In this document: positions 31,356 through 40,946 of the stretch, piece by piece
Numbering within the stretch: position 1 is the stretch's first letter
Layout: every line of letters starts with the position of its first letter
Source: Actinomycetota bacterium
GTDB lineage: Bacteria; Actinomycetota; Thermoleophilia; Gaiellales; Gaiellaceae
Reading direction: 5' to 3'
Assembly: GCA_003132665.1 (NCBI GenBank)
Contig: PKYN01000018.1
Coordinates: 41,022 to 105,021, forward strand
DNA length: 64,000 nucleotides
Position numbers and translations under genes: made by a program
Notes under the pieces: generated by a model
What the model saw: the letters and a program-made list of their open reading frames with translations, nothing else
What the model was told of the DNA's origin: nothing
The model's database searches: none

Positions 31356-32045
31356 TTACTTCGCCTTCGGATCCTTGCCGCCCCAGGCGCCGATCGAGAC
31401 GAGGCGCTCGCGAAAGCCGGTCTCGTCCATGATCGCCTGCATCTCTTCGACCGCCTGCTCGGACGGATACATGTCGCCGAGCCCCAGCTCCTCGCGAATA
31501 TCGTCGCGGTTGGCGATGAATTCCTTCCACTTCGGGCCGAAGGCCTCCGACATGTCGGCGAAGAAGACGCCCGGCGTACCGCCCATGCCCTTGTCGTAGA
31601 ACTGTTCGCCCCAGGCCGCGAACATCTCGACGTGCTTGATGCCGTAGCCCTGCTCGACCTGAATCGAGCGGATGATCTGGTTGATGCAGGCGACCGAGTT
31701 GCCGCGCGGGCAGCGGGCCTGGCAGGTGTAGCAGGAGAAGCAGTACCAGAGCACGTCGTCCGTGAGCAGCGTCGGGTCGCCCTCCAGGGCGCGGCGGGCG
31801 ATCTCACGCGGCGAGTACTCGGTGAAGCGGGCGGCCGGGCAGCCCGAGGTGCAGATACCGCACTGGATGCAGGAGAGGAAGCCCTCCTTATGGTCGTGCA
31901 TGCGCGGGTCGTTGGCGATGCGGTCGACCAGCTCCTGGCGAGACGTGGGGCGCTCGCTGAACGAGTTGTCGGCGATGACCGAGTAGGGGTTCGGCTTTTT
32001 CTCGCTGTTCGTCTTCTTCTTCTCGTCAGTCATCGGCTTCTCCAT
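31356..32045 (-). CDS. HdrC-like iron-sulfur protein (two 4Fe-4S motifs)
   Basis: CIQCGICTSGCP and CFSCYTCQARCP (CxxCxxCxxxCP twice), with HdrC-like spacing. Confidence 0.8.
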   Translation of the reverse strand: MEKPMTDEKKKTNSEKKPNPYSVIADNSFSERPTSRQELVDRIANDPRMHDHKEGFLSCIQCGICTSGCPAARFTEYSPREIARRALEGDPTLLTDDVLWYCFSCYTCQARCPRGNSVACINQIIRSIQVEQGYGIKHVEMFAAWGEQFYDKGMGGTPGVFFADMSEAFGPKWKEFIANRDDIREELGLGDMYPSEQAVEEMQAIMDETGFRERLVSIGAWGGKDPKAK

Positions 32046-33186
32046 CGGCAGTGGTCGCGGCCGGCGCAGCGGCCTGGAAGAACTCGGGCCAGTAATAGAC
32101 GTGAACCTTCGCCTTGGCGCCGCGCACGGCCGAGCGCACGTTGTCGCGGCAGAGCAGGCAGGGCGTGACGATCGGCGCCTCGTTCTCCGCGGCGAAGGCG
32201 ATCAGGTTGCCGACCGCCTCGGTCGGCCCGCGGAACATGGCGCCCAGGGCGCCGCAGCAGCCCGCGTGCAGGCCGGGGTAGGAGGTCACCATCTCGGCTC
32301 CGGCGAGCTCGGCCGCGCCGGCCAGCGACTCGAGCGCCGTCTCGCGATCGGTCAGGCAGCCGACGTAGGGAACGAAACGCGGCGCGGCGGCCACCAGCTT
32401 GCGATCCTCGCGGCGAGCGTGCTCGACCAGCGCCTGCCAGACGGGCACGGTCTCGATCTCGACTTCCTGCAAGCTGTAGTCGCAGGCCGGGCAAACGGTG
32501 AAGACCGCGCTGTCGGTCTCGAGCTTGGCCGGGATTTTCCCGCGCGAGCCGTGCCCGCAGCAGCCGGCGCCCTCCTGCTCGGCGAGCGGGAAGCCGAGCT
32601 CGCGCGCCACACGAGCGGTGGCGTGGAAGGCCTCCTTGTCTTGCTGCAGCGAGCAACCGGCGTAGAACGGCTTCGGCTCCGTGCCTTCGACGGTCAGGCG
32701 CGGCGTGCGGCGCACCTTGCCGCTCGCCATCTTGACGCCCATCGTCGCGGTCGCGACGAGGTCGCTGGGGATGAAGCCGCGCGACACCATCGCCGTGCCG
32801 AAGAGCATGTTGTCGATCTTTCCTTTGCGCGAAAGGCGCTTGGTCGCGATCTCGGCCACCTTGCGCTCGGGACAGCGAACGCCGCCGTACTCCATCTGCA
32901 GACGGCGCACCGCGCCCATCATCCCGGCCACGTCGACCTCCATCGGGCAGGCCTCGGTGCAGGCCTGGCACTCGCTGCAGCGCCAGACGTCCTCGCACTC
33001 GAGCAGCTTCTCGACGTCCTGCGAGAGGATCAATCGCACCACCCGGCGCGGGCCGAGAGCGAGCTCGAAGCCGTTCGGACAGGCGCCGATGCATTGGCCG
33101 CACTGCAGGCACTGTCGGCAAGCGACCTCGAGCTCGCGGACGGCTGCGCGCGCCTGTTCAGGCACCTGCGTGGACACAGCCCTCAC
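32026..33186 (-). CDS. HdrC/HdrB fusion protein (2x 4Fe-4S plus two CCG cysteine-rich domains)
   Basis: N-terminal CLQCGQCIGACP and CSECQACTEACP. C-terminal CCG motifs GAGCCGHG and HAGCCGALG. Confidence 0.8.
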   Translation of the reverse strand: MRAVSTQVPEQARAAVRELEVACRQCLQCGQCIGACPNGFELALGPRRVVRLILSQDVEKLLECEDVWRCSECQACTEACPMEVDVAGMMGAVRRLQMEYGGVRCPERKVAEIATKRLSRKGKIDNMLFGTAMVSRGFIPSDLVATATMGVKMASGKVRRTPRLTVEGTEPKPFYAGCSLQQDKEAFHATARVARELGFPLAEQEGAGCCGHGSRGKIPAKLETDSAVFTVCPACDYSLQEVEIETVPVWQALVEHARREDRKLVAAAPRFVPYVGCLTDRETALESLAGAAELAGAEMVTSYPGLHAGCCGALGAMFRGPTEAVGNLIAFAAENEAPIVTPCLLCRDNVRSAVRGAKAKVHVYYWPEFFQAAAPAATTADGEADD

Positions 33187-39600: not shown

Positions 39601-39993
39601 GTCCGACTGGAAGCCGGCCCGGGCAACCGCCGCAGCGACGATCTTCTCGGCCTTGCGCTGAGCCTTGGCCGGCTCGTCGCGGTGGATGAACGAGCAGCCC
39701 TCGCGCAGGTTGGCAAAGGCGACCGCGTTCTCGCCCAGCCTCAGCTCACGCGCGATGCGCTCGAAGGTCGGGCCCTGGAAGCGGCGTGAGCAAGCGCCGA
39801 TGACGATGCGATCGAGCCCGCGATCCTCGACCGCCTGCTCGATCAGGCGGCGCCCTTCGGTGCCGCACATGAACTGGTTGCGCGAGATCGAGACGACACC
39901 GCCCGAGCCCCTGGTCGCGTCGGCCAGCGAGTCGAGGTCGAGTACGCCCGAAATGTTGCCTCCGCACTCGCACAGGAAGACTCCGCAGCGCAT
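36637..39993 (-). CDS. Large HdrA-like protein with an inserted GltD/NfnB-like NAD(P)H-binding module (HdrL-like architecture)
   Basis: Start [12 protein letters not shown]. HdrA blocks: [45 protein letters not shown]. Internal GltD-like blocks: [19 protein letters not shown] and [47 protein letters not shown]. Two C-terminal 4Fe-4S motifs. Confidence 0.85.
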   Translation of the reverse strand: [1118 protein letters not shown]

Positions 39994-40946
39994 CAGACAG
40001 CCGCCCTTTCCCTGGCACCGATTCGCTGCAGAAGCGGTTCGACGTCCTGGGAGTGCGCCTTGACGCCGCAGACCGTGTCGGGGTCGGCGCCGAGCGCGAG
40101 CGCCACCAGCTGCTGCGTGTGCAGGTGAACGAACGGGTACTCCTCGCCGGCGCTCTGCTCGATGATCGAGTGGTGGCGGTCGAACTGGAGGGCGCAGTTC
40201 GGGCACATGTGCACGCAGACGTCGATCTTCTCCTCGGCGAGCCGCCGCAGCTTCTGGCGCGTCACCGCAACCGAGATGGAGGGATTGACGAAGCGCTGAC
40301 GGAAGCCGGCGCCGCAATGCGTCGTCTTCTCGTTGTAGCTACCGGTCTTGATCACGCCGGTGGGCTCCAGTAGATCCTCGGGGATCATGAAGTTCTCGGC
40401 GTCGCCCACAACCTCGTCCGGAAAGACCTTGCAGTAGTGACAGGCGGGGTGAGTGGCGACCTTGATCCCGTCCAGGCGACGCTTGACCAGCTTGGGGATG
40501 GAGTGATGGCGGCTCCAGAGAATCTCGAGCGTGTGCATGTGCTTGATCTGACCGGCCACCGCATCGGTGTACTCGCGCCCGATCTTGGCCAGCGCCTTGT
40601 TCGTCTGCTTGCGGAACTCCGGCACCTCGAGCACGTTGCGCGACTTCTTGTTGATCGCGTAACAGGTCGAGCAGAGATAGCTCTGAATCGGATGTCCCGC
40701 CTCGACCGCGACGCAGGCGTTACGCGCCGCGACGCCGAGCGTGGTCGGAAAGGGGAGAAGATCGGAGTAGTAACCGAGCCCCGTACAGCAGGTCTGGTCG
40801 GGGTTGACGGTGTACTCGACGTCGAAGCGGTCGAACAGCCATTTCGACGCCGACTCGACGCCCGGATACTCGGTCGTGACCAAACAACTTCGAAAGAGTT
40901 GGACGCCGCCGGTTACGGGCGGGATGTCCGGAGTGCTGGGTGCCAT
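39993..40946 (-). CDS. HdrB-like protein (CCG cysteine-rich domains)
   Basis: LFRSCLVTTEYPG...DQTCCTGLG, with a second Cys-rich half (HPACHYCK...THCGAGF...CPNC). Confidence 0.75.
   Translation of the reverse strand: MAPSTPDIPPVTGGVQLFRSCLVTTEYPGVESASKWLFDRFDVEYTVNPDQTCCTGLGYYSDLLPFPTTLGVAARNACVAVEAGHPIQSYLCSTCYAINKKSRNVLEVPEFRKQTNKALAKIGREYTDAVAGQIKHMHTLEILWSRHHSIPKLVKRRLDGIKVATHPACHYCKVFPDEVVGDAENFMIPEDLLEPTGVIKTGSYNEKTTHCGAGFRQRFVNPSISVAVTRQKLRRLAEEKIDVCVHMCPNCALQFDRHHSIIEQSAGEEYPFVHLHTQQLVALALGADPDTVCGVKAHSQDVEPLLQRIGARERAAV

Follow-up and report, generated by a model that had tools for sequence, protein, structure and literature searches.

The seven Hdr-like genes at positions 31356-40946 of the window, the 64,000-nt stretch analyzed here, are best explained as a single conserved operon whose product would be a flavin and iron-sulfur oxidoreductase of the HdrABC-MvhD type, soluble and located in the cytoplasm. 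With a probability of roughly 0.55, this enzyme bifurcates or confurcates electrons among NAD(P)H, ferredoxin and a disulfide, and is built from two non-identical protomers. An earlier note on this DNA had proposed a self-contained, NAD(P)H-linked thiol/disulfide complex of this type. That reading remains the best fit for three reasons: which domains are present, that their cofactor motifs are intact, and that exactly these seven genes are retained, in at least four lineages, without a common flanking partner.

All seven genes lie on the minus strand, where the earlier note had placed them, in the order HdrB (g1), HdrA with an insert (g2), MvhD (g3), ferredoxin (g4), an HdrA-MvhD fusion (g5), an HdrC-HdrB fusion (g6) and HdrC (g7). 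Profile and structure-sequence matches for each gene bore out this parts list, which amounts to two HdrA, two MvhD, two HdrB-type and two HdrC-type modules. No transmembrane-like segment was found in any of the seven proteins. Most gene pairs overlap or sit less than 20 nt apart, and the overlapping stops and starts described previously are real: g1 and g2 share TGATG, g4 and g5 share ATGA, the pairs g5/g6 and g6/g7 also overlap, and g2 and g3 share GTGA provided that the GTG start of g3 is used (an alternative ATG lies at 36625). The 172-nt gap between g3 and g4 (36019-36190) is likewise exactly as reported, and a search of it for terminator-like sites and Rfam families returned none. Across orthologous loci the median g3-g4 spacer is only ∼17 nt; the gap is therefore specific to the lineage of the window. 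Public gene calls for g5 (784 aa) and, on a single contig, for g1 (296 aa) place the start too far downstream and thereby lose invariant cluster-ligand cysteines; the longer versions (805 aa and 317 aa) are correct.

The first gene, g1 (39993-40946, minus strand), encodes an HdrB-type subunit with two CCG domains. It matches the NCBIfam HdrB model NF041780 over its full length (333 bits; curated cut-off 450), and its alignment with methanogen HdrB (PDB 5odc_B) spans both proteins from one end to the other. Residues C21, C53, C54, C78, C92 and C95 are kept in every ortholog covering those positions. In the second CCG motif, an invariant H210-C211 occupies the place of Cys-Cys in methanogen HdrB, and there is an additional invariant cysteine, C172. 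This substitution of a ligand cysteine by histidine was counted against the disulfide-bifurcation model.

The g2 protein (36637-39993, minus strand; 1118 aa) combines the four canonical HdrA domains with an insert. Its HdrA core scores 562 bits against PDB 9sfi_A and 519 bits against 5odc_A. It carries the N-terminal-domain cysteines C8, C10, C43, C68 and C100, the FAD motif VVGGGIAG, the Cys197 equivalent within FPTEDC191AMC194, the thioredoxin-reductase-domain cluster ligands C858, C872, C876 and C877, and a C-terminal 2x[4Fe-4S] part; at least 69 of 72 orthologs share each of these positions, the rest being gaps or single sequences. The insert (∼aa 286-757; 37723-39138, minus strand) is a GltD/NfnB-like NAD(P)H-FAD-2x[4Fe-4S] module, recognized by Pfam Fer4_20 and Pyr_redox_2 and scoring 523 bits against PRK12771 and 308 bits against NfnI (5jca_L), with invariant C292, C296, C331, C335, C339 and C343. 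It splits the HdrA core within the inserted-ferredoxin domain, as in ANME-1 HdrA9-11; in methanogen Hdr, the branch that bears this insert in g2 leads to ferredoxin. The dinucleotide motif reads GGGDVA followed by YRR, the NADPH type, in the Gaiellaceae lineage of the window and ACIE(D/G) in Dormibacterota, Acidimicrobiia and Binatia, which points to NADPH in the former and to NADH in several other lineages. Adjacent to it, g3 (36191-36640, minus strand) encodes MvhD, the [2Fe-2S] electron-transfer subunit (Pfam FlpD, 144 bits, E = 2e-42), whose C27, C30, C56, C81 and C86 are invariant among 74 orthologs.

Four genes remain. The 148-aa ferredoxin g4 (35572-36018, minus strand) has two CxxCxxCxxxC motifs separated by a long linker, and C37/40/43/47, C110/113/116/120 and C28 are invariant among 74 orthologs. 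The fusion protein g5 (33158-35575, minus strand) scores 301 bits against 5odc_A and 472 bits against the HdrA2 model NF040770 (cut-off 1100), and has a C-terminal FlpD/MvhD domain (∼aa 651-758; 33302-33625, minus strand; 87 bits). At least 61 of 63 orthologs retain its N-terminal cysteines, FPTNDC191GQC194, both ferredoxin domains and the MvhD cysteines. In the 386-aa, HdrD-like g6 (32026-33186, minus strand), an HdrC-type 2x[4Fe-4S] domain with two CxxCxxCxxxC motifs precedes two complete CCG motifs (C178, C209, C210, C232, C235 and C277, C310, C311, C343, C346), all ten cysteines of which are invariant among 56 orthologs. The HdrC subunit g7 (31356-32045, minus strand; 229 aa) matches NF041890 with 211 bits (cut-off 270), and eight of its cysteines are invariant among 60 orthologs. 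Overall, the cofactor motifs are intact, and among the 56-74 orthologs available per subunit each ligand cysteine is invariant or missing only in gapped or single aberrant sequences. The NCBIfam scores of all subunits fall below the equivalog cut-offs, which was also counted against the disulfide-bifurcation model.

CCG proteins also serve non-disulfide chemistry, as in LutA, GlcF and EtfD. The CCG modules of the cluster could exchange electrons with some non-disulfide substrate or partner, such as a 2-hydroxy acid dehydrogenase, an electron-transfer flavoprotein or a quinone, making the product a non-thiol NAD(P)H:ferredoxin-linked oxidoreductase. The AF2 model of g6 (pLDDT 87) agrees with this, as its Foldseek matches comprise EtfD (9ojn), HdrC and LutA, with mycobacterial EtfD the best, and the NCBIfam models for GlcF and LutB also match g6, if weakly. 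The modified second CCG site of g1 points the same way, as does a Pseudomonadales relative in which a GlcD-type FAD_binding_4 dehydrogenase follows the HdrD-like gene; the role of HdrBC in the Moorella HdrABC-MvhD-MetFV complex is likewise not known (PMC7325909). However, a conserved GlcD, LutB/C, Etf or membrane/haem partner is absent from all 58 loci, g6 has no hydrophobic segment and keeps every one of the ten cysteines that a canonical double CCG site has, and g1 can be aligned with the methanogen subunit over its whole length. We regard a non-disulfide role as distinctly unlikely.

Genomic neighborhood analysis drew on 58 species-level MAG loci with enough flank for a colinearity count, from Thermoleophilia, Acidimicrobiia, Dormibacterota and Binatia. 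In 55 of them the complete cluster is found with gene order and strand unchanged, far beyond chance; the other three are fragmented hits or lie on a contig that is cut short. Gaiellaceae, other Thermoleophilia, Dormibacterota, Acidimicrobiia and Binatia have no flanking gene family in common, which indicates that the seven-gene unit is self-contained. No candidate thiol carrier gene was found near the cluster, which weighs against the disulfide-bifurcation model.

The absence of a hydrogenase, formate dehydrogenase or MetF partner, as previously claimed, holds within the window, but for hydrogenase it does not extend beyond it. In 11 of 12 Dormibacterota loci, PFOR, HoxEFUYH, HoxW and HypA are encoded directly upstream on the same strand, and in the twelfth, whose flank is too short, only HoxW and HypA are visible. 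Electrons might come from or go to a [NiFe] hydrogenase, nearby or elsewhere, as in MvhADG-HdrABC, and the two retained MvhD modules fit this, since in methanogens the hydrogenase docks at MvhD and electrons enter there (PMC9012536). Yet the flanks of the Thermoleophilia, Acidimicrobiia and Binatia loci contain no hydrogenase, and the Dormibacterota enzyme is a complete NAD-type Hox hydrogenase (group 3d by subunit content), not of the MvhAG type, whose link to the cluster could run via the NADH pool. A hydrogen-linked Hdr is accordingly very unlikely.

The cluster does lie directly downstream of sufC, sufB and sufD on the same strand, as noted earlier, but a meaningful link to suf could not be upheld. 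The adjacency is limited to the closest Gaiellaceae relatives; in other lineages the neighbors are hemE/hemH/nadA, GH94/GH1 or an amidohydrolase. Moreover, the 133-nt sufD-g1 spacer contains a promoter-like site, TTGACT-17-GATAAT (40979-41007, minus strand; 10/12 match), the only one in 30400-41300 (0.6 expected from shuffles), and this weakly suggests transcription independent of suf. An accessory role in Suf Fe-S assembly, or an sHdr-type sulfur-oxidation system, for which the two HdrB/C-type sets among HdrA/B/C-like genes would speak, is extremely improbable and is contradicted by gene content: lipoate-binding protein, DsrE and TusA genes are missing, and, in contrast to the short sHdrA, both HdrAs have their full length and come with ferredoxin domains and MvhD. 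The earlier exclusion of sHdr, Flx and MetF-type systems was justified.

The module tally equals that of the dimeric (HdrABC-MvhD)2 core of methanogen Hdr (summarized in PMC9012536), but with non-identical halves. Here, we infer complex formation, bifurcation, its direction and the ferredoxin partner. Protomer 1 would consist of g2, g3, g1 and g7, and protomer 2 of g5 and g6, with g4 as a dedicated ferredoxin. The HdrA flavins would split or merge electron pairs among three partners: a pyridine nucleotide, bound at the g2 insert on the low-potential branch that faces ferredoxin; a ferredoxin of low potential, which could be g4 or the general cellular pool (e.g., from PFOR); and a thiol/disulfide couple of high potential, which g1 and g6 would handle at their CCG sites with non-cubane clusters. 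Overall, the reaction would take the form 2 NAD(P)H + Fd(ox) + RS-SR' <-> 2 NAD(P)+ + Fd(red) + RSH + R'SH, in which NAD(P)H may be donor or acceptor, both being compatible with the motifs. The complex would operate in the manner of FlxABCD-HdrABC, except that its NAD(P)H module is fused into HdrA.

Both HdrAs have retained the cysteines of the N-terminal domain as well as the counterpart of Cys197, through which the cluster of the partner is completed, so homodimers are as possible as a g2-g5 heterodimer. Two separate, co-encoded enzymes could also be present: a type-III HdrA enzyme (g2, g3, g1, g7) for NAD(P)H-dependent disulfide and ferredoxin reduction, and an HdrA2B2C2-like enzyme (g4, g5, g6) that, as in Methanosarcina acetivorans, would use ferredoxin or perhaps F420H2. 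In line with this, F420 synthesis is common in Actinomycetota and Chloroflexota-related lineages. With just 33.5% identity, the g2 core and g5 are old paralogs, and the 172-nt gap splits the two halves in the window. A minimal HdrA(GltD)-MvhD-HdrC-HdrB set stands alone in an Asgard MAG, as does HdrA(GltD) together with an HdrD-like gene in Dehalogenimonas, and g5 has the same HdrA-MvhD architecture as HdrA2, a protein that needs no other subunit to bind F420H2 and ferredoxin (PMC5296606). Nevertheless, the halves are never apart in the 58 loci and at least four lineages, their order is fixed, and the g3-g4 gap is usually short. The sole free HdrC available to the free HdrB g1 is g7, encoded beyond the second half at the opposite end of the cluster, which argues that the two halves need each other. 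An independent lineage also doubles its parts around a GltD-insert HdrA within one operon. Two separate enzymes are thus rather unlikely, and a single complex of two protomers is favored.

The seven-gene double set is real, although its architecture is less unprecedented than first implied. HdrAs with GltD/NfnB inserts (HdrL, ANME-1 HdrA9-11 and "type III") and multi-HdrA clusters with HdrD-like genes are already known, from sequence only (PMC2702500, PMC9012536, PMC12054007).

The suggestion of an aerobic, high-G+C Gram-positive host found no support. No aerobic marker was found within the window, which comes from an uncultured Gaiellaceae (Thermoleophilia) MAG lineage, and the related cluster-bearing genomes are all MAGs whose record names point mostly to fen, bog, permafrost, lake-sediment or anaerobic-reactor samples. 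Immediately upstream of the cluster in one Thermoleophilia locus is a GAF-kinase/LuxR pair, which we read as DosS/DosR-like. Uncultured peat and soil bacteria from several phyla carry the same operon, and there the complex would probably help to keep redox balance when oxygen is absent or scarce.

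The cluster, about 9.6 kb long, consists of seven genes on the minus strand, numbered g1 to g7 in transcription order, which together encode a double set of Hdr-type subunits. The first, g1 (39993-40946), is an HdrB-type protein of 317 aa that matches NF041780 over its full length with 333 bits, contains two Pfam CCG stretches (the Cys-rich motif type for non-cubane [4Fe-4S] clusters) and aligns end to end with the methanogen HdrB chain 5odc_B. It is followed by g2 (36637-39993), an HdrA of 1118 aa with 562 bits to 9sfi_A and 519 bits to the methanogen HdrA chain 5odc_A, and by the MvhD gene g3 (36191-36640; Pfam FlpD, E = 2e-42). 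Beyond a 172-nt spacer lie g4 (35572-36018), a 2x[4Fe-4S] ferredoxin; g5 (33158-35575), an HdrA of 805 aa with a C-terminal MvhD domain (FlpD at aa 656-744); g6 (32026-33186), a 386-aa protein in which an HdrC-type di-cluster domain is fused to two complete CCG motifs; and the HdrC gene g7 (31356-32045). The HdrC 2x[4Fe-4S] type is thus present in g7 and in the N-terminal part of g6, and the Cys ligands of the MvhD [2Fe-2S] cluster in g3 and in the C-terminal part of g5. In total, HdrA, MvhD, HdrB-type and HdrC-type modules each occur twice, alongside a single ferredoxin. GC3 is high throughout, stop and start codons overlap between most adjacent gene pairs, and no membrane-like segment was found in any of the seven proteins. 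Every structural detail of the cluster given in the earlier note was upheld.

One half of the cluster is made of separate subunits and the other of fused subunits. The two halves are old paralogues: the core of g2 shares 33.5% identity with g5, and g3 shares 42% with the MvhD domain of g5. The public annotation names the genes merely as 'FAD-dependent oxidoreductase' or 'Fe-S oxidoreductase', and some of its gene starts are misplaced. The public call for g5 starts at 35512 (784 aa) and drops the invariant C16/C18, and on one contig the call for g1 starts at 40883 (296 aa) and drops the invariant C21. Because both starts lie downstream of invariant ligand cysteines, these calls are too short; the upstream ATG starts agree with alignments to the solved HdrA and HdrB structures. 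That the 172-nt spacer between g3 and g4 might hold a regulatory RNA or a terminator was rejected, as it has neither an Rfam match nor a terminator-like site.

In a scan with one genome per species, relatives of g2 were found in 194 genomes. The best 80 of these 194 are all metagenome-assembled genomes (MAGs), labeled Thermoleophilia/Gaiellaceae, Acidimicrobiia, Dormibacterota, Binatia and, once, 'Deltaproteobacteria'; many of their isolate names suggest fen, bog, palsa, peat, permafrost, lake-sediment or anaerobic-reactor samples. The window itself belongs to a JGI metagenome contig, and the MAGs with close homologues of g2 bear the names Gaiellaceae, Thermoleophilia or Actinomycetota, the best species-level match being the Thermoleophilia MAG 'Chersky' (97% identity). 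When the window proteins were used in tblastn, all seven genes were recovered in identical order and orientation at 55 of the 58 loci with enough flank, and at the three exceptions the hits are fragmented or the contig stops too soon. The gene for g3 directly follows that for g2 in the window and in 74 loci. Median intergenic distances across loci range from -28 to +17 nt, so that the 172-nt spacer is peculiar to the lineage of the window. The fastest-evolving subunit is g6, with a median identity of 50%, compared with medians of 59-74% for the others. Degenerate Cys or FAD motifs, which the earlier note had named as a finding that would speak against it, did not emerge on alignment: every cluster-binding motif keeps its ligand cysteines across 56-74 orthologs; in g3, g4, g6 and g7 these are invariant, and in g1, g2 and g5 they are absent solely where a sequence has a gap or is a single aberrant one. 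Selection acts on the cluster, which is genuine and intact.

Both HdrA proteins align along 5odc_A, keep all ligand cysteines in their orthologs, and retain the N-terminal Cys and the FPT(E/N)DCxxC motif. In g2, an insert at approximately aa 286-757 lies inside the inserted-ferredoxin domain, between the C242-C252 and C759-C775 motifs. This insert is GltD/NfnB-like (Fer4_20 plus Pyr_redox_2; 523 bits to PRK12771 and 308 bits to the large subunit of Pyrococcus NfnI), and alignment to the NfnAB large subunit places in it two [4Fe-4S] sites, an FAD motif and NADPH-type GxGxxA/YRR motifs. The large subunits 5JCA_L and 4YLF_B align with it over its whole length (~304-308 bits); unlike in NfnAB, the module is embedded in HdrA, and a partner for the small Nfn subunit is absent.

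The dinucleotide motif of the insert (g2 residues 545-556; window ~38326-38361) occurs in two forms across the orthologous loci L003-L082. After an invariant GGGDVA, the window, the Gaiellaceae and some other Thermoleophilia carry (A/V)YRR...EMPA, and the Dormibacterota, Acidimicrobiia, Binatia and remaining Thermoleophilia carry ACIE(D/G) or a near variant at the same position; the acidic, NADH-type motif is found in about half of the g2 orthologs. We infer NADPH binding for the Arg-Arg pattern, which is typical of NADPH-binding GltD/NfnB proteins, and a preference for NADH where the acidic residue stands, as is the classical reading; the Rossmann-fold rules behind this assignment are cited in PMC12054007. 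The two forms look like a cofactor switch within one orthologous family.

The methanogen Hdr is a dimer of HdrABC-MvhD(AG) protomers, in which the N-terminal cluster of each HdrA is completed by Cys197 of its partner. In the tandem HdrAs of ANME archaea, a complementary loss of Cys197 or of the N-terminal domain is the signature of an obligate heterodimer. Such a loss was sought and rejected for g2 and g5, since both proteins keep both features; a heterodimer is therefore possible but not demanded, and the comparison neither supports nor excludes it. The preferred reading, with a probability of roughly 0.55, is that the cluster encodes a soluble NAD(P)H-, ferredoxin- and disulfide-linked Hdr-type enzyme, bifurcating or confurcating, built from two non-identical protomers. 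The old divergence of the two halves, one of separate and one of fused subunits, would also be compatible with two co-encoded enzymes instead of one complex. The free HdrB (g1) and the sole free HdrC (g7) lie at opposite ends of the operon, so the halves are not independent cassettes, and the arrangement as two enzymes is considered unlikely.

The substrate side of the proposed enzyme would be represented by the CCG subunits. In g6, all ten cysteines of the double CCG, the putative ligands of two non-cubane clusters, are invariant in 56 sequences. In g1, nine of the ten are present: H210-C211 (window 40314-40319) is His-Cys in all 66 orthologs where methanogen HdrB has Cys-Cys, His210 occupying the first Cys position of the second CC pair in the second CCG motif. 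An extra invariant cysteine, C172, stands three residues after the first ligand (ACHYC). These two features suggest an altered ligand set for the second non-cubane cluster of g1. For g6, a PDB sequence search matched the HdrC half alone, and the CCG half therefore had to be assessed through a structure model. The AF2 model (pLDDT 87) resembles the soluble part of mycobacterial EtfD, with Foldseek returning EtfD 9ojn (TMq 0.56), HdrC and LutA, and as a prediction it confirms an HdrD-type fusion fold of an N-terminal 2x[4Fe-4S] part and a double CCG, the combination seen in HdrD/GlcF/EtfD-type proteins. The likeness to EtfD and LutA is a reminder that CCG domains serve non-disulfide chemistry too, and non-thiol chemistry at the CCG sites of the cluster was weighed as an alternative. 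No hydrophobic segment was detected in g6 (maximum KD19 1.33), and no HdrE, haem-b, EtfD-transmembrane or GlcD-type partner of g6 is conserved among the neighbours of the cluster; this alternative is rated as distinctly improbable, and a disulfide-linked enzyme remains the preferred reading.

Comparison with characterized systems places the cluster near several of them. With MvhADG-HdrABC of hydrogenotrophic methanogens (5ODC), it shares the four-domain layout of HdrA including the N-terminal cluster Cys and Cys197, the 2x[4Fe-4S] HdrC, the double-CCG sequence layout of HdrB, MvhD, and the 2:2:2:2 module count of the dimeric core. It differs in lacking the MvhAG hydrogenase, in having different paralogues as its two HdrA halves (cores 33.5% identical), in the ~470-aa NAD(P)H module of one HdrA, in the fusion of one HdrBC pair, in the His that replaces one ligand Cys of g1, and in a bacterial host in which CoM/CoB metabolism is not evident. 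In no case does an NCBIfam score reach the curated equivalog cut-off (HdrB 333 vs 450, HdrA 625 vs 1400, HdrC 211 vs 270).

The closest characterized relative of g5 is HdrA2B2C2 of Methanosarcina acetivorans, which represents the HdrA-MvhD fusion subclass, is dependent on ferredoxin and F420H2, and bifurcates from F420H2 (PMC5296606). The likeness extends to the ferredoxin gene g4 immediately upstream of g5, and the best NCBIfam Hdr models are NF041780 ('ferredoxin:CoB-CoM heterodisulfide reductase' HdrB) for g1 and HdrA2 for g5. However, g5 reaches 472 bits with the HdrA2 model NF040770, well below the cut-off of 1100; the host is not a methanogen; and the fusion is paired with a fused HdrCB and set in a larger operon.

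The architecture of g2 also has precedents. HdrL of Desulfobacterium autotrophicum, an HdrA/glutamate-synthase fusion followed by MvhD, was named in 2009 with NADH as its proposed electron donor (PMC2702500). HdrA9-11 of ANME-1 carry a 500-aa NfnB-like insert in the ferredoxin domain, and ANME clusters hold several HdrA paralogues and occasional HdrD-like genes (PMC9012536). A 2025 survey grouped nine archaeal sequences with a GltD insert as 'type III HdrA' (PMC12054007). With these proteins, g2 shares a GltD/NfnB-like NAD(P)H-FAD-[4Fe-4S]2 module within the inserted-ferredoxin domain, and an mvhD gene lies directly downstream in this group, as g3 does in the cluster and as is also seen in the Pseudomonadales, Asgard and JGI contig relatives.

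Other systems are more distant. The chemistry proposed for the cluster resembles that of FlxABCD-HdrABC of Desulfovibrio, which reportedly uses NAD(P)H to drive an Hdr-type bifurcation, with ferredoxin and a disulfide (of a protein or of a small molecule) as acceptors and with an MvhD-like linker. However, flxA, flxB and flxC are absent from the cluster and its conserved flanks, there is no DsrC nearby, and the pyridine-nucleotide module is a GltD/NfnB-type insert inside HdrA. An HdrABC-MvhD-MetFV assignment found no support, as none of the seven genes encodes an MTHFR domain and the lineages have no flank family in common. The earlier note had set the cluster apart from sHdr systems, and this distinction stands: its HdrAs, of 805 and 1118 aa, carry ferredoxin domains and are accompanied by MvhD, as opposed to the short sHdrA (~350 aa), and none of the sHdr accessory genes lbpA, dsrE and tusA occurs among the called neighbours. 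By architecture, the cluster belongs to the broad HdrABC-MvhD class and to the GltD-insert HdrA group; at the equivalog level it is distinct from the methanogen enzymes, Flx-Hdr, MetFV-Hdr and sHdr. Searches of open-access papers and preprints returned no description of the seven-gene cluster or of Hdr genes in Gaiellales, Thermoleophilia or Dormibacterota, nor of the fixed gene order and its spread in Actinomycetota, Dormibacterota and Binatia. The cluster is not categorically new.

The whole g2 clade collapses to one representative at 50% clustering. The nearest relatives outside it with the same architecture share 38-44% identity and come from Dehalogenimonas sp. WBC-2, Pseudomonadales MAGs and Asgard MAGs; a Syntrophaceae group of ~1495 aa lacks the N-terminal domain. 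One Asgard MAG shows a minimal set, HdrA(GltD)-MvhD-HdrC-HdrB. In the organohalide-respiring Chloroflexi genome of Dehalogenimonas sp. WBC-2 (L083 8835-13740, CP011392.1), an HdrD-like gene and a 1118-aa HdrA(GltD) ~40% identical to g2 are followed by an uncalled thioredoxin ORF (105 aa, WCGPC), and the locus adjoins CODH/ACS genes. This arrangement hints at a thioredoxin-like protein as a possible substrate in that lineage. A Pseudomonadales MAG (L085 6578-15771) has HdrC-HdrB-HdrA(GltD)-MvhD-HdrD-like, then a GlcD-type FAD_binding_4 flavoprotein and a 2-hydroxyacid dehydrogenase. A metagenome contig (L086 5180-15238) carries two HdrC-HdrB pairs, HdrA(GltD), MvhD and two further HdrA-like genes, and appears to be an independent case of doubling. 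Because the gene contexts of these relatives differ, the GltD-insert HdrA is a widespread building block, of which the cluster is one strongly conserved elaboration.

The genomic neighborhood of the cluster is lineage-specific. Upstream on the same strand lie sufC, sufB, a small glyoxalase-family gene and sufD, with a promoter-like site in the spacer between sufD and g1; downstream lie a hypothetical gene, P-II and Amt. When 1248 flank ORFs from related loci were clustered into families, no family was common to different lineages. Flanking suf genes are seen solely among the closest Gaiellaceae relatives; in other Thermoleophilia the cluster is accompanied by hemE, ferrochelatase, an amine-oxidase-type haem gene and nadA, in Acidimicrobiia by GH94 and GH1 glycosidases, and in Binatia by an amidohydrolase. 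The link to suf drawn in the earlier note was not borne out, and a functional connection is rejected because the adjacency is confined to Gaiellaceae. The glyoxalase/bleomycin-resistance family gene between sufB and sufD (42236-42598, minus strand; 120 aa) was found by tblastn at >75% identity in 5 of 11 close Gaiellaceae loci and weakly (46-60%) in four, with no match in three Gaiellaceae loci that carry sufB and sufD. Upstream of the suf genes, a GGDEF plus HD-GYP (HD_5) protein (45086-46309, minus strand) is a cyclic-di-GMP turnover enzyme. The 201-aa hypothetical protein directly downstream of g7 (30557-31162, minus strand) has no Pfam match and occurs, at 82-89% identity, in some Gaiellaceae loci only; it is therefore not part of the conserved module.

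Two contexts are the only functionally suggestive ones. Directly upstream of the cluster and on its strand, 11 of the 12 Dormibacterota loci (L058, 29-8881; L049-L052, L054-L056, L059, L076 and L078) encode pyruvate:ferredoxin oxidoreductase (PFOR), a DHO_dh-like protein, HoxE-F-U-Y-H, a hydrogenase maturation protease and HypA; in the twelfth, whose flank is short, only the last two are seen. In a Thermoleophilia UBA6103 locus (L036 255-8839), a LuxR-type response regulator and a GAF-HisKA_3 histidine kinase, read as a DosS/DosR-like pair, stand immediately upstream of the cluster, and the opposite strand encodes a 1037-aa NuoF-GltD fusion adjoining a molybdopterin oxidoreductase. The lineage whose operon follows the NAD-type Hox hydrogenase carries the NADH-type variant of g2. 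A hydrogenase-coupled role was also considered. No hydrogenase or PFOR was detected in the window by tblastn with the Dormibacterota Hox, PFOR and HypA proteins, and no electron-input enzyme (MvhAG or FdhAB) occurs in the window or in most related loci. The absence of a hydrogenase partner claimed in the earlier note thus holds there, but not in the Dormibacterota, which alone have an adjacent Hox-type hydrogenase. As the role of the cluster, hydrogenase coupling is very improbable, and the NAD(P)H-, ferredoxin- and disulfide-linked enzyme is retained.

The host had also been described as aerobic. No aerobic or anaerobic markers were found in the rest of the window, which encodes type I restriction-modification, an aquaporin, Opp and Pst binding proteins, a class I aldolase and sugar-nucleotide enzymes, so this label is an assumption. 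The window contains tRNAs at 1042-1103, 5987-6059 and 54313-54385, and not far from one tRNA gene there is a match to the Rfam EGFOA sRNA (5285-5393, minus strand; 58 bits against a gathering score of 37.7). In its vicinity are an IrrE/M78-peptidase gene (3347-4234) and the type I restriction-modification genes for HsdR (7543-10701) and HsdM (12615-14177), and this region could be an integrated element or a defence island.

A more specific proposal, put forward tentatively and regarded as doubtful, is a single asymmetric Hdr supercomplex in which two dissimilar HdrA-MvhD-HdrB-HdrC protomers would form a heterodimer with three flavins. The pyridine-nucleotide pool would thereby be linked to ferredoxin and to a bacterial thiol heterodisulfide, or perhaps to two of them, one at g1 and one at g6. 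The supercomplex would act as the central anaerobic redox hub, with the NADPH/NADH switch set by lineage and with H2 entering via Hox in the Dormibacterota. If true, such a complex would enable Actinomycetota and Dormibacterota that are abundant in soil and peat, and supposedly aerobic, to ferment or to survive in the absence of oxygen.

We know of no HdrA with a GltD/NfnB insert that has been purified or characterized, and the cluster family gives access to how an NfnB-type flavin module behaves when connected to the low-potential arm of HdrA. Compact, bacterial and of seven genes, and found in at least 194 species-level genomes with natural NADPH- and NADH-type variants, it is a practical target for heterologous expression and cryo-EM. 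The cluster points to a further thiol/disulfide redox carrier and to an unrecognized energy-coupling step in its carriers, Thermoleophilia, Acidimicrobiia and Dormibacterota of peat, permafrost and wetland soils; how these bacteria live without oxygen bears on carbon turnover. The cluster offers a well-defined, abundant and experimentally tractable entry to an uncharacterized branch of flavin-based electron bifurcation, as well as to the anaerobic life of bacteria that are common in soil and peat.
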